Source of the DNA: Ophelia neglecta
Taxonomy: Eukaryota
Assembly (NCBI GenBank): GCA_965285935.1
Contig: OZ260665.1
Span: forward strand, 20,646,001 to 20,710,000
Reading direction: 5' to 3'
Length of the DNA stretch: 64,000 nt
Made by a program: the position numbers and the translations under genes. Numbering within the stretch: position 1 is the stretch's first letter; every line of letters starts with the position of its first letter. Below the pieces are notes generated by a model. That model was given only the letters and a program-made list of their open reading frames with translations. It did not search any database and had not been told where the DNA came from. Positions 1 through 63,770 of this stretch are shown one piece after another.

Positions 1-1368
1 TGCCATTGTAGAATCGTCAGGTCAAAGGTCAAAAAGAGGCGTCGTCGTTCTAATGATTGTTAGGGAATCATAAATGAAAACTATAAATTTTAGCAATAGA
101 TGTTTTACACCTTTCGACCACAGAGAATGAACTGTCTGGCTGGGATCCTCGGCATACATGTGATGTGTGTAGCAACTGGGGTGATAAATTCCAGCATTGT
201 AAACTAAATTTAAGATTTTATGATTTACTCGCTTACACACATAAATTAATCATACAATCAGAAAAATGTCAACTTATCAAATGTGAGTTATTCTTTCATA
301 TAAAGGCTTGGATGTGAATAATACGATGTCCTTCTATTCATTTAGAGGAGTTACACACTAAATCTTCTAGAATTGTTTACTCTAAACAATGGTAGCTCTC
401 TTAATTTTTGAACTGCTTACAATGTTTTTGTTACAAGCAACAACCACTGAAGTCCATCATTGTACCGCATCATATATCATAATGCGTTTCTTTGTGGAAT
501 ATACCTTGAATGGAAGAATTTGCCCTTTCCTATTATCAATGTAAAGTATAGGTAATAATTTCTGTATGCTTACTAAATCTATATAATCTTTCTTTTTCAC
601 CTATAGGGTCTTGCCAGTAGTGTCTAAAGTAATCAATATTGATTTTAAAATGCTAGCTGGCACATTTTACCAAGGTGTCATATTTTTGTGTTCTTGTTAT
701 GGTGTCAGTTAGGTGATATAACTTTCGACACCACAGTTTCTAGACGGCTAATTACGAACGTATGATAGGTTTAAACACAACAAGAACAGGCAGTGATTAC
801 AATATCATATCATATTGTCATTGTCTAGTCAAGCGCCTTTTAATAGCCTTCGTATGGAAAGGTTTATCATTTGTCGGTGTGGTAGAATGCATTAGGTTTC
901 TAACAATATAGAAACTGAGTGTAGAAGCCCCAAAGACCAATCAGTCATCTTTTAGATGAGATTAATGATCAGGAACAATGCTTAATTCCTTAAAAACAAT
1001 AATAAGCTTGTCACTCTGCTAATAAGATGTAACAAAAAGCTTTGGTTTTAACACATGCTCGGTCTTGGCAATAATTCGCACCAAACTAAAAGCTTCAAAT
1101 GCTCACTAGTTGGTCAAATTGAACCCATAAAAAACGGGACTGAATACCTCCAGACAAAGCAATATCAAGTCCACTAAATCAGTCCGAAATAACCAGGAAC
1201 CAGCAACTAAGTTCGCATTGGCACCGATAATTAATGCAAATCAATTGGACATCGTTGCGGTACATGTAGGCACAAAAAATAACATAATTTTTATGTGAAA
1301 GAGAATCTGGTAGTTTTGTATAGGCGTTGCTATTTAACGACAAAACACGTATGTTATCAATATTTCAG

Positions 1369-3719
1369 TTGCCCACAGCGAGGTGTATGGCTATGGGTTC
1401 AGACCGTACGAGTATCTGCCGGCTCCGGAAAGTAATAGCACACACATTCCCGACCTTCAGAGGGCGGCACTTGGAATGTACGGCTTGAGGAGTTTCCTGC
1501 TGCCCCGGATGTTCATGGTCCTATTCTACGTCAAAGAGCAGCTAGGTCTTCAAACCAACCCTTTTCTGGTAGGTTAGAGAAATATAATGAAGGTCATTAG
1601 CGACAAAGAATATATATCAAATAGAAGAGCGCTTCAGCTACCAAACTTCTTAACCCCCTGCCAATCCTTATGTTTGAGTCGTTTCATGTTGGAAAGTAAT
1701 CGTATGTTTGCTTTGCAGCTAGCGAGAATATTCCATGCCATGATTGCAGCCAATTTGCCTTTTGCTGTCTTTTATTTTTTGCGACACACAGTCAAGTCAC
1801 GTGACACACGATTCTTGGCGTCCATTTTGGTGGCCACATCAGAACATCTGACTGTACTAGGCACACACACACTGGTAAACAGTTTCCTGGCTCCTTTTGT
1901 ATTCTTCTTTTTGGGCTGGTTCTTAGAATTGACCTCTTCAAACCAGAACCCAATCAGGGAGGAAGAAGATGCCATTTTAAACGTCACTTATTCATCGACC
2001 GGTGCTTTACTAAAACCTTATAATTGCTTGAATGTCAACGAGAAGCAGAACTCTTTCACTAAACATGCCAACATTGACCCGAAAGTGATCCGAAATGGGG
2101 CAGCAAAAGGAAAAGGGTGTACAAGCAACAACAACAACAACAAAAATAACAAGATGTGCTACATCACAAATTGTCAGGAAAATGCTACTGTGGCCGTATT
2201 TTGGAATTTTAGTAAATATTCTAAGCAAATCGCTTCGTGCTTGATCGGATTTAACGTAGAAATAATAATACACACATTCAAGTCAATGTCAGATATGGTG
2301 CCCATTTCCATTAGAATAGTAGTTGGAATATCATTAGGTATTCTGGTTTATATCAGAGTTGATTTAATACTTTTAGTTGGTTCGGTGATTGTTGTTTTTT
2401 ATGTATTTAATAATTTGTCAAATATGGAATATTTAGCCCCCAACTTGCCCCAGTTTGCTTTAGGGGGATGTATTGGTATAGTCCTGGGAGGCTGGGATGA
2501 CTACACGTGCTATGGTGTTTGGTTTATATCCCCTTATCAATGGTTTAGATTTAATGTTTACCGCGACTTATCTACCACCATCTTTGGTAAAGGAGAATCA
2601 TCTTACTATGTCCAAGAGTTATTTATACGAGATGGATATTCAATCATCCTGTGTCTAGGTGTCCTAATTGCAATTATAACATCTACCGCTATGGTTAGGT
2701 TTGGCTCCCATTCCTCAGTGACAAATACACCATTATTTCGTTTTACGCTGGTTTTTGTTTGCTTGTTAGCTTTCTATTCGGCTAAAGGACACAAGGAGCT
2801 TCGGTTTGTACACAACGTGATTGTGATATACCTTGTAATCAGCGCATTATCTTTTGACCTTCTGATTGATCTCTTATGCAACTTGCTTAATAGGACGACT
2901 GTTAGAAAACTTGCATATGCGTTGACTGTTTTTTCGGCTTTCTGGCATCTCTTTCTCCGATGTGGAACACTAAAGGATAAGAATGTTGCTAGATGGTCGT
3001 ATCAAGGCACAACAGATAGTGGTCACGTGAACAGCTGCTTGGATTTCATTGGCCAGCAGGATGACGTCACCGGTATTTTCCTGGATAAAACCATCCACAT
3101 GACTGGAGGATACAGCGTGTTACACAAGGACGTTCCCATATTGGCTTTAATTCATTATGAATATTACGAATTTGGAAAAAGCGCCAGACAATCCACTTAT
3201 TCCAAATTTGGAAATCAGGATGGAAAAGAAATACATGTCTCAGTTCTATCGCATATATCCGACTTTTTCTCGGTAGATAACAGCCTGTTACTGGTTAAAC
3301 ATATTATCGATAATAAAGTATACAACTATGTTGTGATTGAAGCTGACAGACCCATTCTTGATAATGGATTCCGAAAAGTGTTTTCAACCGGACGTCTACA
3401 AGTTATGAGAAGACACGGGGATGGCCAGTCAGAAATTAGTCTTAAAACTCCTTCAGACCAAATTCCAATCGGTTCAAACTCTACCGTTTTGGAATTCGAA
3501 GGCAGTTGGTTATTAACTTTTGGATTGTACCATAAAGCATTATCGAGACTACATGAGGCTTTGAGACTGGACCGAGATCGAGTAAAGTTGTACCAGCTTC
3601 TCTCTACGACATATGGTGCTCTGGGAGACATGAAAGCTGCCAAAAAACAATTCTCACAATGTAAACAGTTACATGGACAGAAATGTTCTCAGCCTCAACC
3701 TAAAATTGTGCTGCACTGA
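1369..3719 (+). CDS. PIG-B/Alg9-like (Glyco_transf_22, GT-C fold) mannosyltransferase with C-terminal TPR; 5'-partial; exons 1369-1568 and 1719-3719
   Basis: Acceptor tttcag|1369 gives (V)AHSEVYGYGFRPYEY..GLRSFLLP (cf. PIG-B EVAH..VFGYG..TWEW..LRS). Donor ctg|gtaggt at 1569 and acceptor ttgcag|1719 join in phase 0 into LARIFHA. Further GT22-like motifs: THTLVNS, YIRVD, DDYTCYGVWFISPYQWFRFNV, YSAKGHKELRF. Many TM segments. TPR-like helices at ~3480-3670. The upstream exon with the DExxQ motif was not found in the window. Confidence 0.85.
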
Positions 3720-15795: not shown

Positions 15796-18700
15796 CTAGA
15801 ACGTTTGACCGAGAAGTACGCGGGCGCGGTCAATAAATGACGTAATTTTCTTTATAAAGCCAGACGATGAGATTGTTGTTGTTAAAGGGTTAACAAAGGC
15901 ATTCAAACTAAACATGATTACCATTGACAGCGTTATGTACTGAGTATTGAACAAGGGGTCTACGTATAATATTATCGTTATCACTATCGGGATGGTAGCG
16001 CCTAAACAATTAGCAATACTATAACATATTGATCGCCGAATGCCGGACAACATGCGGCGCTTTCTGCCAACATCTGTAACCTTTATCAAATTCAGTGAAC
16101 ATATTAGGCATTTTATATATCTTAATTGCAAACCGAGATTGATTAGTGTGAGGATAATATTGTATCCCAAAAATATGCTTATGAACAAAACCTTATCATC
16201 AAGTTGTATGCGATTAACGGGTAGGCAAAAAGGATTCGAAGCCGTCTCAAATTCCCCGAGTCGTATTACAGTAAAAGTTAGAAATATGCACAGGCATGTG
16301 TTGGCGAACAAGGACAAACATGTAATTTTCATCATTTTACCAGTGCGTAACTTTATATCATTCGAAGCAATCATCAGTTGTTGAATAGCAAGTGTCAAAG
16401 ATAAGTGAAGGGATGACTCATAACAGAGGAATACTAATGCACCAATCACAGTACAAGTTACTGAACCAACTAGTGTATATAAATTTGTGGTATGTACATG
16501 ATGTGTAATAATTAGATAACATAGGTATATACCGATTAACAAATCACATACCTGCTGCACCTGAACAGTAACTTTTCTTGAAAGAGCCAAATTACTTTGT
16601 TGCCACCAAACCTCAGAGGTCAAATTAAAGATGAGAATGAATACAGCCAAGAACGAAACAAGTATCAGCATCAGTGGTCCAGGAAACAATCCCTTACACA
16701 ATGGAAATAAATACCTACTACCTTCCAATACACAGTGCGTCATTTTGCGATGTAAGCAACACCACCACCAATCAGTATTCGTCCTAAAGACTAACACGTC
16801 GGTCGAATCTCCAAAGATAAGCAAAGCTGGGTCAAAGAAAGGTGCAAACTCGACATTTAGTTTTTCCAAGGACACCAAATCAACAAATAAATGCGAAGAT
16901 GCGTGGGTCAGCTGTGTGTTACGTAAATTCAGAAAGTGTAGACATTGCATCCCGCTAAAAGCGCTTTTTTCTATAAAAAACAATGGGTTGCTGGATAAAT
17001 CAAGTTCAATCAATGAATTGAGACCTACGAACATTGTATGGGTTAGTTGCCGTAAATCATTGTGATGCAAAAGAACATATAACAAGTTTTTGCAAGTTCG
17101 AAAGAAGAAGTTCGGTAATACAGCAATATCAGTATGTGTAAGTACAAATTTTCTCAGTTTTTTCTTTCCATCAAGCAGCGCCAGTGAAACACTTTTCAAA
17201 CGATAGTCTGATTGATTTTCATATATTAAATATTTTTCATCTGTATTATAGCCTATCAGGGTGAGTCCAAGAGGGATAACTGTCGTGTCTCCGTGACAAA
17301 CATATCCATCCGGACATGGCTTTTCCCAAGGTTTGGATTCATCATCGCAAGAGAATGGACATTCACATATGCCGTTCATTATCTGATCGGGATGGACACA
17401 GCGTTTTCCACGGAAACACATAAAGAGTCCAGGACATGCAAGACGTTCACAGTTTATCTCGTCCTTACCATCGGGACAATCCCGTATGCCATCACAAACC
17501 ATTTCGTAGGGAACACAATAGGTGTGGGGGCATTTAAACGATTTGAGACACAGTATTTCTTCACAATATTTCAGACTACTTGCAGCATAGCCACTCAGTT
17601 TGCATTCACCATTTGTGTGTTTTTTATCACCCTGAATTCTGTAAAATAGGCACGCCGCAGAAACTATTTCTCTGTTGCATGAATCATCGACAGGAGAATT
17701 ATTCCCAAAATATTCGAGGTCTGTGGGTTGATTATTCAGTATAGGCAGGCTTGTGGGACACTCTGTGTCAGAGTTCCTGGCTTTGAAACAATGTAGTTCG
17801 TCAGAATGATCAGCACAGTCCGATTTCCGATCACACAGGAACGACCCGGGAATACAGCCCCCATCATCACACTGGAAATAGACCTTTGAACAAACGCATC
17901 CGGGTTGTTTACATGATGTGTAGCAATATTCGGGGGATACCGGGATTTCCGTTGAATGGCATATATTATCACACTGTATTTCGTCACTCTCGTCTGGACA
18001 GTTTGATAAGCCGTCACATCTGTATTTATCCCAAATACATGTTCCATCCGAGCATGTGAACATCCCTAATACACATGTCTTGTCAACGTGGACTGGCGCA
18101 GATTCGCAAGCGACATGTGTCGGGAATTGAAGTCCTTTTACGTCGCAGACGCATTTTTCGCTGATAACAGCGATATCTTCACCACAGCTGCAGTCTTGAA
18201 TATAAACACTACCATTATCCATATAAATACGGTCCGTCTCCCTGGACAAAAGATGTAAAAATGCGTTGAAAGTAGAGGTCCCCCTGGCATGGTTATTCGC
18301 AACTTCAGCTTTGCCCAGACATGACCTCTGCCATGGATGAACACTGAAACATATTTCGTTTATCATAACTGATCTATTAAAGCAGTCTATATTGTTTTTC
18401 TGTAGATATTTAGATACTTGCATACCGGTGGAATTATTATTTACGTATTTAAAACGTTCACAAATGTATCCAATTGACATAGGGTCGTTTTCGACCTGAC
18501 AACTGACTTTGAACCACGGGTTCCACTTAAAATGTCCCATTAGGACTGCAGTGCAATTGTGGTCGTTTCCGGACTCATATCCTTCTGCCAGATGATGTGG
18601 GTAACGTATATGACGTATTCTAGTTCTCCCCGTCGTGTAATTGCAGGGCATCAGCAAGGACGAGTAACTCGTGCAGATACTCTTGTTATGTTTCAGGATT

Positions 18701-21700
18701 TCTGATTTTGTCGGATGAGACGAATGCCAGTTGGAGTACTGGTATGGCGAGTTGTCCGTCCACCCGTGTTTGCCATCCTGTAGTTTAAAAACAACACACT
18801 TAGATTGACCTATATCATTAAGTTGTTAAACTTATACGTTTGCATCACCCAATCCATGCCATGCTCTTTCCAGCTTGTACAGCAATTTCATCAAAATTAT
18901 CTGTTCATATGTCAAAACGGGGGTAGCTTTTTCCATATACTCGATAACAAGTAACGATTGTTTCAAGAAATGATATAAATGCAAATAAAACTATAAAATT
19001 AAACTAATACAAACACAAGCAATATGCGGACGTTTCATCGCTATCAGATATAGGATAAATTGACCTTAATAGGCATGTGAGTTAACACAGGCATTTATGG
19101 AGATCAGACCATTATTTATTGACCTTAGTTGGCAGGCGACCTTATTACACAGGTGACCACAAACACAGGTTTTACTGTATATCATTTGCTGTAGTTGCCC
19201 GTGTTCAGTCACTATAAAAGAGTAACTGGTTCACTTAAGCTAAGCACTGTTATAAAGTACAATCCTAGAGATTTTATTCTATTTTTCTCTTTACGACTCA
19301 AACATTCCTCTTTGCTCTTTTGTTTATTGGGATTCTTTCGTTCCTATAGTCTTTAAATATTAGCAGGAAGCTAACACCATCATAGCCTCTCTTGGGACAT
19401 CATCTCTGTCCTACTTTAACCCCTGACAATTTTGTTTTCGTGATCTGATCGCATTATGGATAACTGTTGACTACTCCTTATTACAAGTAAAAACTTTTAT
19501 TATGGAATGCTTTGTGTTGTAACATGCTTAGTTATTGTTTGGGAGCTGGATAAATTTATATAATAAAAAAATAATAAATTAATTTCACTGCTTGCCACTA
19601 ACATTAATACCGAACAAAAACCACCCTTCCCAAAGAAAATGAATTCTCAACATACCGAATTCAGATCATGAAGGCCGATCCACAACATGCCGACAGTGAA
19701 AAAGTTTTCAACCACCTGCAGAAAGGGGTCCCGAACGTTAAACGTCCATTTATTCAACACGTATGCATGTGAACTGTGGGGTGCGTCGTGAAACATTTCC
19801 ATCATTCTATACCTCCATGTCAGTATCACCCTCCATTCCCAGTCCGAGTTTATACTTAGCAGATGACCTCCCTCCTGCTTACAGTTATTCTCTGCCTGCT
19901 GCCAGGATGGCGATTCGCCATCAGACATATATACAGAATAAACCTTGTCACCATGGCACATAGTATTTATCTTGTTTTTACATAGGATTTCTAGCCCGTG
20001 CATATCGGGTTTTTCCTCCATTTTATGGGACAATATCAACTCGTGTTCATTATCTCCTGAATCTTGCCCTATTATTGTGACCACCGCTGGCGTGTAAATG
20101 TCCTGAGCGTGCACCGTTATCAACCCAATGTCGGAGGGCACATATTGGTAGGTTAACTCACGCAGGCTTCCTTGAGAAGTGTACAGACGCTCTTCGATCT
20201 GCGCTCTGTTCATCGAGATATACACATCAGCGTCGTTCGCTATTAAGTTATTCGTGTTTGAAATTTTACGTTTCACCATCCAGTTTAGTGGATAAGATAC
20301 TACTACTATTGGAAACATTCCATCGTAAGTGGCGTTTCTGCTTTTAGGTCTAATTCTTATTTCCAGTATCCAGATCATTGATTTGGTTTTGTGGGGCCAT
20401 ATTTGAGAGAAATCATAGGTGGCATGAATGATGCCGGGGAACTTGCTTAATGGAATTATATAAACACCACATGTGTTTTCATTGAGAAGTCGTGCGCACA
20501 AAGGACTCCACCATCCGCGGCAAGTAGACTTTGCCAAATATTCAGTTATTATTGAACCGATGGAGTCACTAGCCAGTAATGGGATAACAGCACCAGTAAG
20601 GAAGATACCCAAACAAGGTGTGGTATTATTAAAGGTAACTAGCCCGGTATATGCATAATACCTTTGGGCAAGGCAAGGCAAAGCTTCACTGGCTTTAGTG
20701 TAGTAAGCTTGCAGAACCACCTGTATCATGTTTAAGGAATGATAATTTTGAAAGAGGAATTTTTGCGGATTAAGCAAAACAAACGGCCATATCTTACTGA
20801 ATAGTATTGGCTGTGATGTGAACACATCAAAACACCTCTCATCAATTGGAGTATGGTGCTTAAAAAACCACGAGCTCGTTATTGTTGCTGGCCATGTCCT
20901 GATAGACAGTTGGGCTTTCAGCTGAGTAGTATCTTGATTTGTCAAGTTGCTGGTCGAGCTAATTTTAAAGAGAATACTCGACCCACTAATCTTTTCACGT
21001 TGCTCTACATTCTGGTGCATGGATGGTCTGTCACTTGGCATACCTTGTAAGAAAATACAATTATCGTTATCAGATATGTTATACTCCGCCTTAATGGCGT
21101 TTCTAGCCGCTACTCCGTACTCCACATTTAACACCCCTCGACAACTGCCCGGACTAATTATACCTGATATTCTTATATTAAAACCACTGGAGTAACGTTG
21201 AATAACTAAACGGGTCAGCTTCCCGTACCGCAGCCTCCCGATGCCTTCCGATATATATGTCTTTAACATATTAAAGCCTCCTGCAGAACAATAGACAGCA
21301 ACAGGTCTAAGACGATCTCCTTCCCGGTGGTTTACGTCATGGACTATCTCATAAAAGGCCTCTTCGTACTCGGCAAACAAGTACAAGGCGCCAGAGTCAC
21401 ACATGTAGGTCATGTCATTTTCTATTGTCATATTCTCTATGTCAAGAATAAGTTCCAAATTATGATTTGATTCCACTGTAAGACTGTAAAAGACTTTTGA
21501 TGGTAATGTTCTAGTATCGATATCGAAATGTACCTTTTCCTCTGGCGAATGAAGATATGTCGAATCGATTTGACAACTTCCGGTATCGTACATTTCGTCT
21601 CGACAATTAATATCTTGCATTTTCAATATTATTTCTACGATAACAGAAGGTTTTTGTCCCTGTCTTGGTTCATTTTGCAACAAAATATTGGATTTGGAAG

Positions 21701-22895
21701 TGTAGAATATTTGCCCGTAGCCAAATTTGGTCCAGCGTGTAGTCAGAACTCCTTCTTGTGTGTAGTTATATATACTTTGCTTCATGTCGCCACAACTATA
21801 TAAAGAAGCCTCATTGCCCCTATGGTTCTTGTGAGGCGTGCTAGTAATTAAATACGTCAGCATTGTATCCGGGAGCTCGTAAACGGTAATAAATGTGTTC
21901 TGATCACACACTCCATCAGTCACAGTATATCCGATCCTATCTGTGACCAATGCCCTGACATGCCACCATATAGTAAACGTATCATCAAACGTCCACTGGT
22001 ACATAACATAACAGAATACAAACCTTAACACCTCGTATCTCATCAAAGGTTGTAATTGTTCAAAAAGACTATGAACAAGTCCTACAGGTAAGTCACTGTA
22101 CATATTTTCTGTGATGGGCAGTATAAGACCCGTGTCGATCACAGAGTAAGACATTTCAAGGGAAAAGTTGTCCATGCGAAACAAGGTGGCCACTGCCGTC
22201 AAACCACCATCGCTGACAAAATGAAGATGTTTAACATTACCACAAATGTTAATTATTCTTTTGGTCTTTATGCGTGTAAGTAGGTTTTCGTTCTTTTCTG
22301 GCTGAAATGCCTCGAAGGAACCTCTAAGACACGGTACACTATAGTATAACGAACGCATTTCGATCAATGTAAAATTAATAGCATGTTGCAATTTATACTC
22401 AATTAAATAGAAAATACGCGTGAATAGTAAATCGGATTCAACAAAATCAGTCAGATCGTGTTGTGTAATTCTAACCGAGTCGCACAACCTTCGTCTTGAA
22501 TATCGCACACTGTAATACCCACGTTCCCATTTGTAACGAGATCGAAAATCATCACAAAGCGAGGGTCGGACGGACTTCCTCAACTTCTGAAGATAATATA
22601 ACATGCTATTGAGATGGCCGGAGGCAGAAATTTTATTCATATCATACCAGCATCTTCTCCGTAGACCACTGAACCACGATTTAGGCCATTCCCCTCCTGC
22701 TGTAACTGGTATAGCTAGAGGTTCGATTGATATTAGCTTTGATAAAGCTTCAGTGGCTTGCTTGTTATACTCTGATTCATTCCTTTTACTTGATACGCTA
22801 CCGAGATTCATCTCATTATGCATGATGATCCCACTCCTACTACAGCTCATTACCCTGAATGCAACCAATAATAGAGTTATCTTAAGCAACGACAT
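15796..22895 (-). CDS. Giant GRL101/LGR-like receptor (~2073 aa): signal peptide, long N-terminal region (degenerate CUB-like), C-type lectin, LDLa repeats, LRRs, divergent 7TM; exons 22895-19656 and 18777-15796
   Basis: Donor TCG|GTATGT at 19655 and acceptor actacag|18777 are both phase 0 and join WIGLHDLNS to DGKHGWTDNSPYQYSNW, rebuilding a C-type lectin (SWQQAENNCKQEGGHLLSINSDWE..WIGL..W.D.S..Y.NW..CTAV..W..VSC..YICE). Three clear LDLa repeats (e.g. FTCSDGTCIWDKYRCDGLSNCPDESDE) plus one degenerate. About 5 LRRs (LIELDLSSNPL), a WWWCCL hinge, and seven hydrophobic helices ending NAFVNPL. Confidence 0.88.
19050..19177. mobile_element. Partial Tc1/mariner-type MITE (right end) in the receptor intron
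   Basis: Repeated cagg(t/c)gacc motifs ending cacaggttttactg|ta, the same terminal pattern as the 12727 and 58030 MITEs. Left end not seen. Confidence 0.5.
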
Positions 22896-22943
22896 TGTAG
22901 TCTATGATGGATATAACATGTAAGACTCACCTAGCCTAGCAGT

Positions 22944-33667: not shown

Positions 33668-35190
33668 TTAATTTATTCATTCATTTTACCTCCGCTTTCC
33701 GGAGAGTACAGAGAATAGGAAAAAATAAAATCTATTAATAATAATATAAACTAAATCAAAAATTATAAGCGAACAAGAACAAATATATTAATCATAGAAA
33801 AAAAAAAAGTGCGCCCACTCCCCACTAGTCACATCACTAACACGGTTATCTAGGTTTTTGGTTTTCTCTTATTACGGAGGGAGTAAGTGTGGCCAATGAC
33901 TGACAGGATAAGCTCTGTGCCCCGTTTGCCCGACATGGCCTCAGTGAGAGTCGCCCTAGTCAGCGCGTCGGCTCCAAGGCTTGTGTCATGTCCCTCGTCA
34001 CTGAGGCAACCATGTGTATGTGATGGTTGCTGCGCAGAACCACAACATGTGTGCTAGCGTGTCTGGATGACAACAACACGAGGGACATATATCAAATGCT
34101 GCGCAGTCTGATTGCCTAATGGAGTGTTCATACAGGTTGGACGTTTTGGTGACGAGTTTAATTACCGTTTGCGCGCCACTAAGTTGGGTCATAGACTTTG
34201 CATTCCTCCACATTTCCGACAGTTTATAATCCATGCAAACCTCCCTGTACAGGTCTAGGCTAGAGTAGGTGAGACATTCCTGTTTCCATACGGAGCACTG
34301 TCGCATCCCCACTATCTTAGCGGAGTGACTTTTCCAGGCACATTTACTAGCTGATACGCCTCTGTGGAGCCAGGAGCGAAGGGTTTCCTCTGTGCCATAT
34401 TTCACAAAAGCGTCAACCATCATTGATGTTGGGCTCCCCACAGGAAGGGTCCCAGTTAGGTCCCACTCAGTCAATGTGTGCACGTAGAGCTGTCTATATA
34501 AGGATTTGATTGATAGTGCCATTATGTCCCTCATCAATCTGAGTCGTCTCAAGTCCAGCAGATGTTCTATTGACCACCATCCCAACTGTGCCATGGCAGC
34601 CGGGTTGGCAGTGTGTACGGGGAGACCCTGGATCCTCTTAGCATGTTGTCTGTGTTGAGTTTCCAGGACAGCCATTTGCTTCGGTGAAAGATGCAATGTT
34701 TCTAGGCCGTAAACCATGCTAGGGATAACAATTGACCAATATAATTTAGATAAGACAAGGGTATTATATTTCCCGGCTGCAGATCCGATACCAAGCACGC
34801 TGTTCATTGCTCTCTTCCCACGGCTCAGTCGCGCCTGGACTGCATAAGACAGGTCGCCCGGTAAGGGACAGAGGGGTACTCCAAGGTGCGTGGTGTGTTC
34901 TTTATGCGGAATGTGTTCTGGTCCTAGACTGACATGGAGCTGATCTTCCTTGTTTTCCCCGAAGGTGATAATTTCACATTTGGAGACATTGAATGTCATT
35001 CTCCATGTCTTCCCATAGTCGTCGGCGATCTGACACATTTTCTGGAGTGATTTCTCATGCAGCGCAAGTAAAGTAATGTCGTCTGCATATCCGGGACAGG
35101 CGGAGTTCAAACCATAGGCTACACATCCCAGGCCGCTGTTCTCCAGCGACTGGAAGAGACTGTTATACATGAACGTAAATAGCATAATAG
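33668..35190 (-). mobile_element. 5'-truncated non-LTR retrotransposon (RT C-terminal half, CCHC-like finger, 3' tail); RTE-X-like clade is inference
   Basis: ORF 33998-35185 has CPGYADDITL, WRMTFNVSKC, THLGV, MVYGLE and CPSC..DTLAHMLWFC. A frameshifted continuation runs to ~33850. 3' stem-loop followed by an (AATG)n-like tail at 33668-33710. Confidence 0.9.
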
Positions 35191-38100
35191 AGAGTTGATA
35201 TCAAAGTATTAAGCACACAATTAATGAAACAGTAATCGTATATAGCGACTTCAAGGGAGCAAGCACAAAACGGCTCTCGATCCAATTGCAAAACAACATT
35301 GACATATGAATAAATACTTGAAAGTTACATGTTAATATATTGGCTATGTCCAAGGTCACATCATTAAGGTTCTCACCGTTTCGTGAATTCGTTCTAAATC
35401 TGCTGTACGCAAAGCAACACCCTGTTCTTAAGCAACTTAAATATTTCCAAATTGCACCTAAATTGACTGTGATACTAAAGGGAATAGGTCATGTACACGA
35501 AAGGAGTAAATATATATTTCATTTGAATTTAAATAACCGGTTTGTTTTGAAGCAATATATGTAATTTGTTTGTTGTGAGCAAAAAGTACATGATGCAAGT
35601 GAAAGCGAACCAGTAATGGATTTGTATATGACACAGATTGGGGAGGGAAGTGCATGTATACAAGGCATCCATGTAAATATTTTAAGGGGTTATCTGTGAA
35701 TCATATTGCCAGACTTGAAATTGTAAAAGATTCTCCATACCAAGCAGCTTATATATTTCCGAGTTGTACATAAATGGTCTGTGATGGTGTCCATATTAAA
35801 GAGATTAAATACAGTTTAAAGCGGTAATCTGTGGAACATATTGCTAGACTTGAGTTTGTTAACAGATGCTCCATTGAACTGTAGAGACCAAAATGAAAAT
35901 CGCTATCTTGTTTTAAGGCAGTGATTGCCATGACTAAGTTTAGTTTAGACATATTTTGATGCAGGCAGCCAAAATGAAAGCAAATTGTTCTTCATTATGT
36001 TATAAAATTTGAGCCCATAACTCGTCCCTCGCAAAAGGCGGGTTGTATGGGCCAATGAGTTTCATAGCTCTAGGTCCATTTCTAATGTAATAATGGTTGG
36101 CTATATATTACTCCGGCTATGGAGCTATGGACCGAGCCATCTAGTCGCTGCGGTGAAAGACGAACTTTTTCTACCTACCAAAAAGACGCTATTTTGTCGG
36201 CTCTATAGAGGAGTCAGACGTTTATTTGAACACATAATCAATTCCTTATGGTCGATTCATTGTGATAAAGACATATATGTATGTAAAAAAACGTTTTTCC
36301 ACAGATTATGAAACTTAGCTTATAATGCGAAGCCGCATCCAAACACAGCATGTGATGATGTTAGCGCCGAGCATCGAACTTGGGTTCTGTTCCAGTGATT
36401 GCTTGTTTGGTAATGAGTACAACGGGTGTCAACGGCATTCCCTTAACTCTTATTCTAGCCACCATTATTTAAATTAGCACCTGAACAAGGTTTGAATTTT
36501 GATGAAACTTCTTCCCGGCAGAGGAAACTGTTTAAAATAACCCCTATTGTATATTTCATTATTCTCTCAGCATAAAAGTAGGTTTGTTTTGCAGCCGAAA
36601 AAAAAAACAAAGAACAAAACCCAACTCTTTTATAAAAAATATTATGCTATCAGTTATTATTTCAAACCATCAATTTATGAATTACACGGCTGTTCTGGTT
36701 GGCCTAATTAGACCAATTGATGCATGCTTTATATTCCGAATATAGCCTAATGAGCGCTTACATTAAATCAGAATAATGGGTACATTGAATTCAGGTCTGA
36801 CACTTCATAAGCAATTGAAATATGAAATGCTTTAAACAAGAATCACCGTACAGAAGAGCACTGAAAGTGCTCCCAAATTTTTCTCATGAAAGCAACACTG
36901 TAGCAGACGATAATTACCATTCCTTGAAGTTTGACTTCCATTTGAGTTTGTGCTAGCAACTTAATGACTTAGAAATATTTACCTAATGGTGTGCAGAAGA
37001 TTTGATTCTGTTATTATGAATTGCATGCTGCTCTAGTGGACAAACATCTATGCTGCTTACCATTCCGACAATTCCTTGTTCTCAAGAAAGAAATATCAAC
37101 TGAAATTTTCATTTGTTTAAATGGTTCGATGGATATCTATCTTTTCAAATAATTGCAGGTCTTAAAACAATGCCAGATCAATACTTAAAGATGAGACAAC
37201 ACTAAGATACATCATGTAATTTATATATCGTGACCCACAATAGAGGTTAAAATATAATCATACAATGTAAGGAACCATTTAAAAATAAATTCGGTTACGC
37301 CTATCTTAACATGGTAGTATCCCATGACACAACGTTCTTTATTCATAAAAGTGATTGCTCATTTAAACCTCAGTTTTGTTGTAAAATAACATTTGATATG
37401 TTGGTTTTAATTTTGGGCATGTGGTGTGACTTTATATCATTCAATGCATGTGCTTTGCGACATAGGGGCTGTTAGACTTAGGCCTAAATATTTAGCACAA
37501 ATTAATCAATCATAGATATGAGGCAGCATATTTGACAAAGAGTCGAAATCTAATAGTAAAATGTCCCCATGCAGCCCAGACTTTCCAGGCTTTGACGCGG
37601 CGTATGTTTATAGATCTTTAGGGCGATTCTGTTTTAGGTCAGTAAGGACATACATCACGCCATCCTTATAAAAGGTCATATACTGATGGATGGTATACAG
37701 ATTCATTGTACTATTCTCAGTAATGTTGAATATTGTAATCACTCGTCTAGCCGTCAACCAACACCAAGGCAAAGTCTAGACTGCGATAGGTGCTTTCAAT
37801 TGACACATTACTGATATTCGGGGACGCACTGAACCCATAATAAGAACTGTCCGTTCGAGATATTAAGGTGATAAGCTGGCACACAACCAATAATTTAATA
37901 TACTAATGATTGTGTGTCCAAGAGCACACTAATAATGATGAACGTGCCTAGATTACTTTATCTTTCCAAAGTTACATTTTTACCTCTTAAAGCAGGAGCA
38001 CTACTGTTTTTCGTTTGCCTACTATTCATGCTGCGTGTTCTTTTTCAGATGACTTTTGATTGCATACACACTTCAATTTAAACGTGTGTCATGTAAGTAG

Positions 38101-39967: not shown

Positions 39968-40215
39968 TGGCAACGATAATAAACATTATGAAGGCGTCAA
40001 TTGCTTTAAGCGTCATGACTCAAACAAATCTGAAGCTGAGGTGTTGGACCTTGTGATAATACTATGTTAAGTGTGTATTAATGTAGGTTGCAAACCCTTT
40101 ATTATTTTTAAACATGTACTCTTCTTCATTTCCAGTGTTCACTCTACTTTCACACAATACTATCATATGATATCAAAGTTTATTAATTGCAGAATAAGAC
40201 ACAGCGACCGGAACT

Positions 40216-41445
40216 ATGGACTATAACTATTCATTCGAAATGGAGGACCTTAACTTCACCAGCCTGCACACTAGCAACCTGACCATGGATGATCCTTCAG
40301 AGCCAATATATAACCAATTTAACTATTATACAAAGTGGCAAATAATTTGTCTGACAATTCTAGCGGTGCTGGCAATTGTTTTCACAATATGTGGCAATTT
40401 TGTTGTAATTTTGTCATTCATTTTGGATAAAAGCATAAGACATCCGGACAACTTCATGTTTGCCTCGTTTGCTGTCTGCGACATCCTCGTTGGTTCGGTG
40501 TCTATGCCCCTGTACACAGTGTACCTATTGTCAGGTCAATATTGGCCCCTGGGGGAAGTGCTATGTGATCTGTGGCTGTCATTTGAGTATACTGTAGTTA
40601 TGGTCTCTGGTTTAACAGTCCTTTGCCTCACATTTGATCGCCTTTGCATGGTGGAAATCCCAATCAAATATGGAACTTGGCGCACGGGAACTAGAATTGT
40701 GGTTGTTATAGCCTTCACATGGCTCATACCTGTACTGGTTTGCTTCATTTCAATATTCGGCTGGCAACATTTTGTTGGAAAAAGAACAGTTCCCGAAGGA
40801 ACGTGCTATGCTCAATTTATTGAAGACGTTCTGTTCAACACATTTATCCAATCTGTTTATTTCTGGTGTGCCTTGACTTTGTCATTTGTAATGTACGCCG
40901 CTATCTGTAAAGGCGCCTGGGATTGGAAAAATAAAAGGATGGACACAGGCCTGGTCCAGCAAACCAATACAGTTCCGTTGTCGATGGTTGGACAGCGCGT
41001 AGCAACAGGAACATACACTCAAAGCAATACGGAAGGTCCTGTGCCGATTCCAGAAAAGCAGATGGTCCAGCATCTACTCTACCGTAGGAATGAGGGATCC
41101 ACCCCAGTTGAAGAAAATATGTCAGTAGGCGAAACATCTGAACATTCAGGTCATGGTTCCCGTGCCTATACTGGGGAGAGTTGTAATAGAGTTAATGAAG
41201 CCTTTAAGACAGTAACTGTTATATTAGGAGTGTTCATTCTGTGCTTGGTGCCATGGCACATTCTTCTATTGATAAGCACGTTTTGTACAGATTGGGGTGG
41301 CTGCTTTGCTCCTGTACTTTTTGATATTTTTACCTGGCTTTGCTATATCCATAGTACTTTTCATCCACTGTGCTACGCATTTGTCAATCAGCAATTCAGG
41401 AAAACCTTCTTAAGAATCATGCGACTTGACTTTTGCAAAAGGTGA
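40216..41445 (+). CDS. Class A GPCR, muscarinic acetylcholine receptor-like (invertebrate type-B/gar-2-like), divergent; 409 aa, single coding exon
   Basis: N-glycosylation sequons at the N-terminus; TM1 GN; TM2 FAVCDILVG; WPLGEVLCDLWL; TFDRL; GWQHFVGKRTVPEGTCYAQF; FILCLVPWHI; WLCY..HPLCYAFVNQQFRKTF. An upstream acceptor tttccag|40136 suggests a 5'UTR intron. Confidence 0.92.
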   Translation: MDYNYSFEMEDLNFTSLHTSNLTMDDPSEPIYNQFNYYTKWQIICLTILAVLAIVFTICGNFVVILSFILDKSIRHPDNFMFASFAVCDILVGSVSMPLYTVYLLSGQYWPLGEVLCDLWLSFEYTVVMVSGLTVLCLTFDRLCMVEIPIKYGTWRTGTRIVVVIAFTWLIPVLVCFISIFGWQHFVGKRTVPEGTCYAQFIEDVLFNTFIQSVYFWCALTLSFVMYAAICKGAWDWKNKRMDTGLVQQTNTVPLSMVGQRVATGTYTQSNTEGPVPIPEKQMVQHLLYRRNEGSTPVEENMSVGETSEHSGHGSRAYTGESCNRVNEAFKTVTVILGVFILCLVPWHILLLISTFCTDWGGCFAPVLFDIFTWLCYIHSTFHPLCYAFVNQQFRKTFLRIMRLDFCKR

Positions 41446-61052: not shown

Positions 61053-63770
61053 TGATTGATTGATTGATATCTTTATTCCCCCAGTTTCTGGAGAGTACAT
61101 AATGGCGAACATATATACATTACAAACGGAATAAAAAGGGAAGAAATATGAAAATAGTAGTAATGGTAGATGGTAACATGACATTGTCAATGTACTTCTA
61201 CCATGTGGCATTCCAATTGACCTATATATATACCCATAACACAATAGCTGACATGGGGAGTCTAATTGATGAGCCGATCTAACATAATTACCCTACATCT
61301 ATACAAGTAATAAATCGCTCGAGCGATCTCAATGCCATCAGACCTCTCGCCAGCCCCAAGCAACCACGATACCACATCACTGTCTGGCGAATTTGACATG
61401 ATTCGGCACAACCATTGTCTGTCCACATCGAGAGCCTCACATGAGAGCAGAAAGTGTGTAACATCCTCTACTCCATCCCCACAAAGTTTACATGTTCTGC
61501 GACACCTTGGTTTGTTCTCCCGTCGACATTTTGTCATCTCCAAATCCAAGTCTTCGAGAATCAGCTTTACCATCACACGACATGCACAAAGGGCGCCAGG
61601 AAACTTCATAGCAGTTGACCACCATGGAGACATCTGTAAAACACCAGCAACCGCCCTATAGGTCTTCGTACTTGGATAGAACAAACAGCCAACTTTCAGT
61701 TGGCTGTCTGCTGCATGGCGGATAGCATTCTTGATCTGTCTTTTCCAGAGAGCTCTACTGGGAATATTGCCAGTGACAACTGAGTTATGGAGCAGGTGAT
61801 CAAGCCCGTACTTGTAACAAGAACTGATCATAGCGGCAACAGGTCCATTTTCCATCCGTAAAGTGCAGCCTCTCTCAATAATACGGTGCACGGCTATCCT
61901 GCGCAATAGTGACCCCGGCCGAGCCAGCAGCAAGCTGTGTAGCAAGAGCAACCTGTGATAATCCAGTTCACATTCAACTGACCACCAGCCAAGTGTTGCG
62001 TAGCTCAATGGAGAGGCTAATGTCAATGATAGTCGCTGTAGCCTTTTACCATCCTGACATCGGGCCTTCTCCAGCATCAACAACTCATCGGCTCGCAAGT
62101 CCACCAGTTCTAACCCGTACAGGAGGCCAGGGACTACGATACTCGTGTACAGTTTGCTGGCAATGAGTGGCTGAAGTCCGCTGGATGTACCACCAATTCC
62201 AAACATGGGGTTAGTTTTCCTTCTGGCTTTGGATAGTCTTTCTTCGAGAACGTCTTTCATGAATTTCCGCGACTGTGTCAGCGGTATCCCAAGGTGAATA
62301 CAGCCAGCTGAGGCAGGCAGCAAGTACTTTCCCATCTGTAGCGGGCGGGGGTGTCGGCACTTAGATGGAGTTGAAGTGAAATGCATGTACTCCGATTTCC
62401 TAGGATTAAACGAGAACCGCCAGCGTCTACTGTAGTCTAAAGCAGTGTCCACGATCCGCTGAAGGTTCGGTAGGTACAAGGCCATAATGGTTACATCATC
62501 AGCAAAAGCTGGGGCACAGCAGGAAGATTGGTACAAATGGGTCCCAAGTTGAAGGCTCTCCAAGGAGTCCAAGAAGTCGGCACTGAATATCTGAAATAGT
62601 CTCATCGAAAACTTTCCTCCCTGGAATACGCCTTGCAATACTTTAAACCATTCGGAGAGACAGTTTCCCACTCTCACAGCGCACCTGAAATCCTTGTACC
62701 ACATCCTCAAGAGTCTCCAAAGCTTTGCATCAATTCCAAGTTTATACAGTTTATAAAATAGGCCATCTATCCAAACGCGGTCAAATGCTTTCTTAGTGTC
62801 TAAGGCTACAGTGAAAACGTCACTTCCACGCTCGGTGTTGTATGCTATAACCTCACGGGCGATCAGTGATGTTTGCTTACTCGAGCAGCCCGGGAACGCT
62901 GCTCCTTGAAGCCTGCCCAATCGGTCCTCACATAGAAGCCACGGGTCACATCTAGAGAGCAAGGCACTCTCGAAAAATTTACAGAAGATAGTCAGCCTAT
63001 TAACATATCAAAAGGTAGGAGGAATACGTCTATGTTCACGTCTGTACTCCCGTTTAGCGTCCTTGTAGGCCCGATATAATGGATTTTCTGGGTTACGCGT
63101 TCGACCTGCCAGGTCCCAGTCCGATTTCAGTACCAAATTACGCCGCTTTGTTTCTTTCAGCGTGGCATCCCAGTATGGCTTTAAGTATGGTTTATAACTT
63201 CTGTGGGGCAGATTGTCACTGGAAATGGCACACATCAGCGCCGCTAACTCATCAGAGAAGGGATTGACAGAGTGTGGTGGCATGAACAGGTCACCAGCAT
63301 CAGAGTTCTCATCAATGTCGTATTTCTCCAATAAGTCTGATATTTCATGTTGTAGGGGCTCCGTGTACATAGTGTTTACTTGCTGGGACGATAGCTTGTG
63401 CCACTGTCTCTTGGGCTGGCTGGCTGGGAGGGGCCCGTCGACAAAGAGATGCCCCAGGGACAAACATATAGACAGCGGGAGATGGTCTGAGCTATTCTCT
63501 ACGCACTCATCTGTAACACACACTGATTTGACATTAGACACGATACTATGAGAAATCACACAGTGGTCAATGTAAGATAGGCGACCAAGGTTACTGCTGA
63601 ATGTGTATGTGGGGCCAGTGCAAGAATCCAATAGATCAATCATACACAGTGAGAGGCTATTACATATATTTAATAGGTAACCATACAGCTTTACAATCAT
63701 CTCTGTCCTCGCAAATCCTTGGCAGACTTGCTAGAAAGGCCGAGTTGAACATTAATGAACATTAACCCAT
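61053..63770 (-). mobile_element. Non-LTR retrotransposon (APE C-terminal part, RT, CCHC finger), 5'-truncated with an internal deletion; RTE-X-like clade is inference
   Basis: ORF 63008-63700 has SYIDHC and SSDHLP (APE). ORF 61262-62962 has LDTKKAFDRVW, GVFQGG, AFADDV, HLGI and CKLC..EDVTHFLLSC. 3' stem-loop, aataaa and (tcaa)n tail at 61053-61100. Confidence 0.93.

Follow-up and report, generated by a model that had tools for sequence, protein, structure and literature searches.

The window analysed here, a stretch of 64,000 nucleotides of Ophelia neglecta DNA (contig OZ260665.1, positions 20,646,001 to 20,710,000), contains near its beginning a gene for a GT22 mannosyltransferase and thus raises the question of which member of this family it encodes. 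Humans possess four GT22s, which according to the available part of PMC6801728 are enzymes of lipid-linked N-glycan and GPI assembly. A preliminary description of the locus had claimed a separate GT22 subfamily with a TPR-like C-terminus that might act on protein-bound substrates. As detailed below, the gene is intact and is a member of a GT22 subfamily separate from the four canonical ones, PIGB, PIGZ, ALG9, and ALG12.

The gene comprises three exons, which are separated by GT-AG introns and together encode 826 residues without interruption; exons 2 and 3 lie in the window, and exon 1 lies upstream of it. Exon 1 (G000:C8:20644974-20645253) was found by tblastn and motif searches with a full-length bivalve relative as query, ends approximately 750 bases before the window start, and provides the start codon, the first membrane helix, and the catalytic D86 in an HPDE motif. 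On the plus strand of the window, the distal part of intron 1 (1..1368; GTAAGT donor, phase-1 junction) is followed by coding exon 2 (1369..1568; AG acceptor at 1367-1368, GT donor at 1569), which encodes the remainder of luminal loop 1 including R134 (1488-1490), by the phase-0 GT-AG intron 2 (1569..1718), and by coding exon 3 (1719..3719), whose 2,001 bases specify 666 residues plus the stop and cover the remaining membrane helices, the luminal domain, and a TPR cap. The extent first assigned to the gene (1369..3719) therefore consists of two real exons, but leaves out exon 1, where the first membrane helix and the HPDE of the active site are encoded. Within exon 3, a variable low-complexity insertion (1986..2255, plus strand; exon 3 residues 90-179) is unalignable among relatives and is predicted to be disordered (pLDDT under 50); it is likely cytosolic. 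Further along the same strand follow the PF03901 match (2310..2957), which contains N439 and the HKELRF motif (2790-2807) with H518 and R522, a C-terminal alpha/beta luminal domain (2976..3458) with the motif HMTGGYSVLHKDVP (3096-3137), and two TPR motifs of four helices in total, after which a conserved cysteine pair is found (3480..3689). Of the 50 aligned rows, 13 are gapped at this point, and the other 37 all contain both cysteines, which likely form a disulphide.

Two further copies are located in tandem within 45 kb on the opposite strand to the window gene (loci L014-L017; G000:C8:20628198-20634853 and 20605691-20610852, minus strand), both of them intact and with the same two introns. 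All three copies are open, have identical intron positions, including that of intron 2, and are 53-57% identical with dN/dS values of 0.22-0.32, a pattern which indicates that they are under purifying selection and which rules out an artefact or pseudogene. Their dS above 1 and the degree of identity point to old duplications. Three sequencing-read runs at the locus cover the introns and contain no splice joints; they thus look like DNA and are uninformative on expression.

Exon 3 matches the Pfam profile Glyco_transf_22 (PF03901) with an E-value of 5.9e-14 and 52.5 bits, compared to a curated cut-off of 23.8. A search of the O. neglecta genome with this profile yielded 15 matches, which mark the three tandem copies plus PIGB (C5, with the motif MPCH), PIGZ (C2), ALG9 (C2), and ALG12 (C1). 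We take the latter four to be the canonical genes because of loop-1 motifs that presumably characterize each family; the PIGZ assignment is backed by named homologues, and those of ALG9 and ALG12 are consistent with PDB alignments. Since PIGB, PIGZ, ALG9, and ALG12 are encoded separately, at four other loci of this genome, the window gene represents a fifth GT22 kind, and the possibility that it is the sole PIGB orthologue is ruled out by the separate PIGB. In agreement with the initial proposal, the gene also falls outside the PIGB clade, as well as the PIGZ clade, in the phylogenetic trees. Its protein scores 14 bits on the PIGZ profile vs. 524 for the genome's own PIGZ, gives 0-2 bits when compared with PIGB, ALG9, and ALG12 from the same genome (2 bits for ALG9 and for ALG12), and on shared columns is 17-21% identical to PIGB and 14-17% to PIGZ. 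The replacement of the PIGB luminal motif that had been noticed earlier is borne out by the alignment: HMTGGYSVLHKDVP and the MPCHSTP stretch of the genome's own PIGB occupy the same alignment columns, with MPCH retained in this PIGB where the window protein has HMTGGY. With both GPI mannosyltransferases 3 and 4 (PIGB and PIGZ) the protein has in common the PDE..Q..E motif of loop 1 and an HKE.RF motif, and its HPDE..Q..E.AH loop is closer to their loops than to those of ALG9 and ALG12; in contrast to both, H210 replaces the usual arginine.

AlphaFold models were obtained for exon 3 (pLDDT 81.9) and for the full-length mussel relative P0020 (82.4), and for both of them Foldseek placed ALG12/ALG9 structures at ranks one to three. 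The best match in VIA-align was ALG12 (Z 26.5, rmsd 4.1 Å, 436 residues), with an alignment that spans model residues 47-643 and includes the luminal domain, followed by ALG9 (Z 22.5); Pmt4 also reached Z 22.5 on the membrane part, where its alignment ends by residue 513. A GT-C fold with a C-terminal luminal domain of the ALG9/ALG12 type is thus predicted. A hydropathy scan detected only seven strong windows, so that it is the structural match from which a topology of 11 helices is deduced. Despite the similarity of the overall fold (Z 22-26.5 to PDB 9s6s, 9s6u, and 9s6t), structural identity to ALG9 and ALG12 amounts to 14-15%, the window protein occupies a separate tree branch, and it differs from them by its TPR cap. 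By sequence the latter remains below the Pfam cut-off (TPR_8, E 0.006), but it is modelled as four helices in a block with a pLDDT of 94-98, and residues 660-728 of P0020 overlay the CHIP TPR domain at 1.1-1.3 Å over 68-69 residues with Z 12.7-13.0, values that helical repeats easily reach. A structure search with the window model listed TPR domains at ranks 9-31, each with an E-value above 0.06. The TPR-like C-terminus postulated in the preliminary description is hence supported by the models, which predict two TPR motifs and not a long array.

According to the available text of PMC13503287, D82 of human ALG9 is the catalytic base, R112 and R370 are ligands of the donor phosphate, N288 and H366 select for mannose, and R185 of ALG12 is a further phosphate ligand. 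All of these residues have equivalents in the window protein: D86, which sits as catalytic acid in luminal loop 1, corresponds to D82, R134 to R112, R522 to R370, N439 to N288, H518 to H366, and R373 to R185 of ALG12. D86 and R522 are conserved in all 15 animal rows, and R134, R373, N439, and H518 in 14 of them. Because the catalytic and mannose-donor residues are kept, we infer with fair confidence that the enzyme uses Dol-P-Man as donor and follows an inverting mechanism. The acceptor side is less similar: 8 of the 15 animal rows have a histidine in the column of ALG12 H140, and the column of ALG12 R271 shows no conserved arginine in these rows, so that by this alignment the acceptor-pyrophosphate residues are kept only in part. 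Instead, H210, D375, and H525 mark the subfamily.

Relatives were collected by two word-index searches (5 and 46 relatives, of which 1 and 15 have organism names) and by a search of 1.84 billion representatives with 225 matches at E-values up to 0.001; among the matches listed (the best 150 of 225), 30 were looked up and 9 carry organism names. The named sequences derive from bivalves, gastropods, the nemertean Tubulanus, Priapulus, and Branchiostoma. Vertebrates, arthropods, nematodes, fungi, and plants are absent from the named relatives in these searches, in which most matches lack names, and the loss of the gene in other lineages is thus presumptive. In the Atlas the subfamily corresponds to a mostly molluscan cluster of 51 members with an automatic name of the "uncharacterised"/"Mannosyltransferase" type, and the search with a protist-like member returned generic GT22 clusters only. 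Six TPR-less relatives resemble microbial eukaryotes and probably are protists; one protist-like member, P0172, carries a fused long C-terminal region with ShK-like domains. A TPR-tail profile, which is partly circular as it was made from the subfamily's own sequences, matches 40 of the 43 animal-type proteins having both the HPDE and the HKE motif, and none of the archaeal, bacterial, protist-like, metagenome, and own-genome canonical sequences tested. Judged by this distribution, the TPR pair is a late addition of the animals, with archaeal and protist-like relatives having none. Some gastropod copies are also devoid of it. The sequences P0134, P0135, P0136 (Elysia crispata), P0138, P0142, P0143, and P0147 are 875-1,220 residues long and have a C-terminal part that matches the family profile only weakly and in repeated pieces, which suggests that their luminal and TPR region is rearranged.

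The closest prokaryotic relatives are GT22s of Heimdallarchaeia (profile-profile E 2.8e-55 over the membrane and luminal domains). A motif scan of GTDB genomes retrieved 40 loci, 29 archaeal and 11 bacterial, of which 25 are Asgard-named and 18 titled Heimdallarchaeota. PF03901 was detected in 51 of 400 genomes of the phylum containing one Heimdallarchaeota-titled genome: 46 of these matches, with best E-values of at most 1e-13, belong to the 83 genomes of a single Asgard class, inferred to be the Heimdallarchaeia, and the five matches from the 317 genomes outside this class are weak, with E-values no better than 1.6e-6. As the archaeal genomes are incomplete, blanks do not equal absences. With a profile of eight archaeal-type proteins the window gene reaches 249 bits, compared to 77 for the genome's own PIGB, 30 for ALG9, 24 for ALG12, and 12 for PIGZ. 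The affinity to bacterial GT22s that had been considered for this gene because of its GGY..LH motif holds insofar as the motif is common to bacterial and archaeal GT22s, but the nearest relatives are Heimdallarchaeia and not bacteria. Besides GGY..LH, the window subfamily and the archaeal subgroup have an RxD motif in common, and GxHT is found in P0154 and P0160, the archaeal-type rows nearest to the subfamily. Unlike the window gene, the Heimdallarchaeia GT22s are about 560-580 residues long and possess neither TPRs nor introns. P0154 and P0160 had no close match in the 400 and 83 archaeal genomes; the Asgard sequence that matches P0154 best, L190, turned out to belong to the main archaeal subgroup without any peculiarity, and P0154 and P0160 thus stay unplaced. 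Among 53 neighbouring frames from 10 archaeal loci no glycosylation operon was apparent. In three of these ten loci a DAK2 plus FakA-like (lipid kinase-type/fatty-acid-kinase-like) gene directly adjoins the GT22 (L033:3786-4760, L045:5465-6397, and L050:3834-4772), and in L065 a sulfotransferase gene does so. Several genomes of the same class encode two GT22 paralogues (G004 with L043 and L183, G082-G085, and G089-G091); those of G004 fall into a second subgroup, which clusters with bacterial sequences.

A 71-row FastTree and a 55-row C20 tree, which omits 16 rows (one on a long branch, the others near-duplicates or surplus animal rows), agree with each other. In the C20 tree the animal sequences are united with a support of 100/100, then joined by the protist-like rows (99/97) and by P0154 and P0160 (99/96); next outward are the Heimdallarchaeia-type group (100/98), L030 (100/92), and P0174 (100/94). 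The subfamily plus the Heimdallarchaeia-type rows receive 100/98, and a 100/98 branch sets the canonical four apart. After removal of the unplaced archaeal-type rows, ALG9, ALG12, and seven more rows, the resulting 41-row tree groups the subfamily with seven genome-derived archaea at 99/99, with only 85/84 for a nesting inside as opposed to beside the archaeal group. AU tests in IQ-TREE, whose constrained searches were short and in the site-profile case ended at a time limit, reject the monophyly of all eukaryotic GT22s (p 0.0012 with site profiles taken from the constrained tree, 0.0007 under LG+F+G4) and the union with PIGB (4e-7 and 1e-5, respectively). On these sequences the link to Heimdallarchaeia is well supported in a tree without root. 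It is nevertheless conceivable, if improbable in our view, that the subfamily is separate and its Asgard link artefactual, either because a slow paralogue was left near the prokaryotes while the fast canonical four attracted each other or because the gene was transferred from eukaryotes to archaea. Such a view could draw on the long stems of the canonical families, on an outgroup sampling that is thin and biased, and on PMC12395588, the available part of which argues that genes passed both ways between proto-eukaryotes and Heimdallarchaeia. ALG9 and ALG12 are each represented by a single, approximately spliced, long-branched row; similarity or a motif guided the choice of archaeal and bacterial rows, which do not include widespread bacterial GT22s, for instance from Bacteroidota; and the PIGB rows stem from metagenome loci, since the 49 matches to a mixed PIGB/PIGZ query, where named, are PIGZ or unspecified mannosyltransferases and in no case PIGB. 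Moreover, one unfinished run of a reduced tree was unstable and placed the subfamily, without support values, beside three Myxococcota/delta sequences, a position not recovered by the finished rerun. Against an artefact speak the site-mixture trees, with archaeal rows outside the subfamily at three successive starred nodes, the rejection of eukaryote monophyly even under constrained-tree site profiles, and the common RxD and (P0154/P0160) GxHT motifs. Without an established root, these trees are compatible with vertical inheritance as well as with early transfer in one or the other direction.

Taken together, we lean towards the interpretation that this intact fifth-subfamily GT22, which groups with Heimdallarchaeia, would be an ER-membrane Dol-P-Man mannosyltransferase that likely acts on a lipid-linked glycan, with the TPR pair as a putative luminal docking module. 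In the corresponding mechanism D86 would deprotonate the acceptor hydroxyl, R134, R373, and R522 would hold the donor phosphate, N439 and H518 would favor mannose over glucose, and an alpha-linked mannose would be formed. The acceptor would most likely be a GPI-type glycolipid or another lipid-linked glycan or side branch that is not extended by the canonical four, and might be recognized via H210, D375, and H525; the TPR pair, added in the animal line, could dock a partner protein. The preliminary description had instead pointed to TMTC1-4 (GT105), in which a GT-C membrane module also precedes luminal TPRs, and by this analogy the GT22 might have turned to proteins or protein-bound glycans, with the TPR pair binding the substrate. 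The position of the TPR cap after the luminal domain in 40 of 43 full-length animal relatives, the poorly kept pyrophosphate residues of ALG12, the match of the membrane part to Pmt4, and an Atlas feature search with bacterial proteins that combine GT-C and TPR at ranks 2-10 would fit this idea. TMTCs, however, have about 10 TPRs and a DUF1736 loop (PMC7801869, available text), whereas the window protein has two TPRs on a GT22 core, and exon 3 contains no Pfam match to DUF1736 at E-values up to 1. In addition, its luminal domain aligns with ALG9 and ALG12 up to residue 643, where Pmt alignments have already ended by 513, and the TPR, as an animal-only add-on, is missing from archaeal and protist-like members and some gastropod copies. 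A protein acceptor is consequently unlikely, and a lipid-linked glycan the more likely substrate. Even less probable is that the enzyme adds the third or fourth GPI mannose in place of PIGB or PIGZ, be it redundantly or in particular tissues: the loop-1 motif does resemble theirs, but the identities are only 14-21%, both enzymes are separately present in the genome, the luminal motif differs, and the union with PIGB is rejected. Under the favored interpretation of a lipid-linked glycan acceptor, the origin of the subfamily would lie in the eukaryotes' Asgard host, or in a gene transferred early from this host, and many lineages would since have lost the gene. A bolder version, which we regard as tenable but speculative, holds that a fifth luminal Dol-P-Man mannosyltransferase was inherited directly from a Heimdallarchaeia-like ancestor, independently of ALG9, ALG12, PIGB, and PIGZ, and survives in marine invertebrates, amphioxus, and some protists but has disappeared from vertebrates and from the usual model organisms; the enzyme would catalyze a so far undescribed step of ER glycosylation that has a counterpart in archaea, and animals would have added the TPR module to it.

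The GT22 subfamily is apparently undescribed. Its members are labeled in databases as "uncharacterised" or "Mannosyltransferase" only, and no published description of it or of any Asgard GT22 was found in the literature searched, which mostly excluded subscription papers; the terms "GPI" and "mannosyl" are absent from the main texts of PMC10307638 and PMC12962969. Luminal mannosyltransferases have been described as apparently unique to eukaryotes (PMC4973528, available part) and, in the accessible portion of bioRxiv 10.1101/2024.10.30.621208, were placed at eukaryotic origins. A fifth subfamily in animals, nearer to Heimdallarchaeia proteins than to the canonical four, would provide a traceable archaeal link for luminal mannosylation, and it predicts an unrecognised glycan in molluscs, amphioxus, and their relatives.

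The remainder of the window contains several other frames. On the minus strand, a 1,009-codon open frame with LDL-receptor class A and leucine-rich repeats (15799-18825) and a 1,084-codon open frame with no Pfam match (19650-22901) are possibly parts of one large receptor gene. Reverse-transcriptase frames (PF00078) at 34001-35200 and 61265-63007, also on the minus strand, are likely retrotransposon remnants, and a single-exon rhodopsin-family GPCR frame (PF00001, E 1e-44) is located on the plus strand at 40198-41442.
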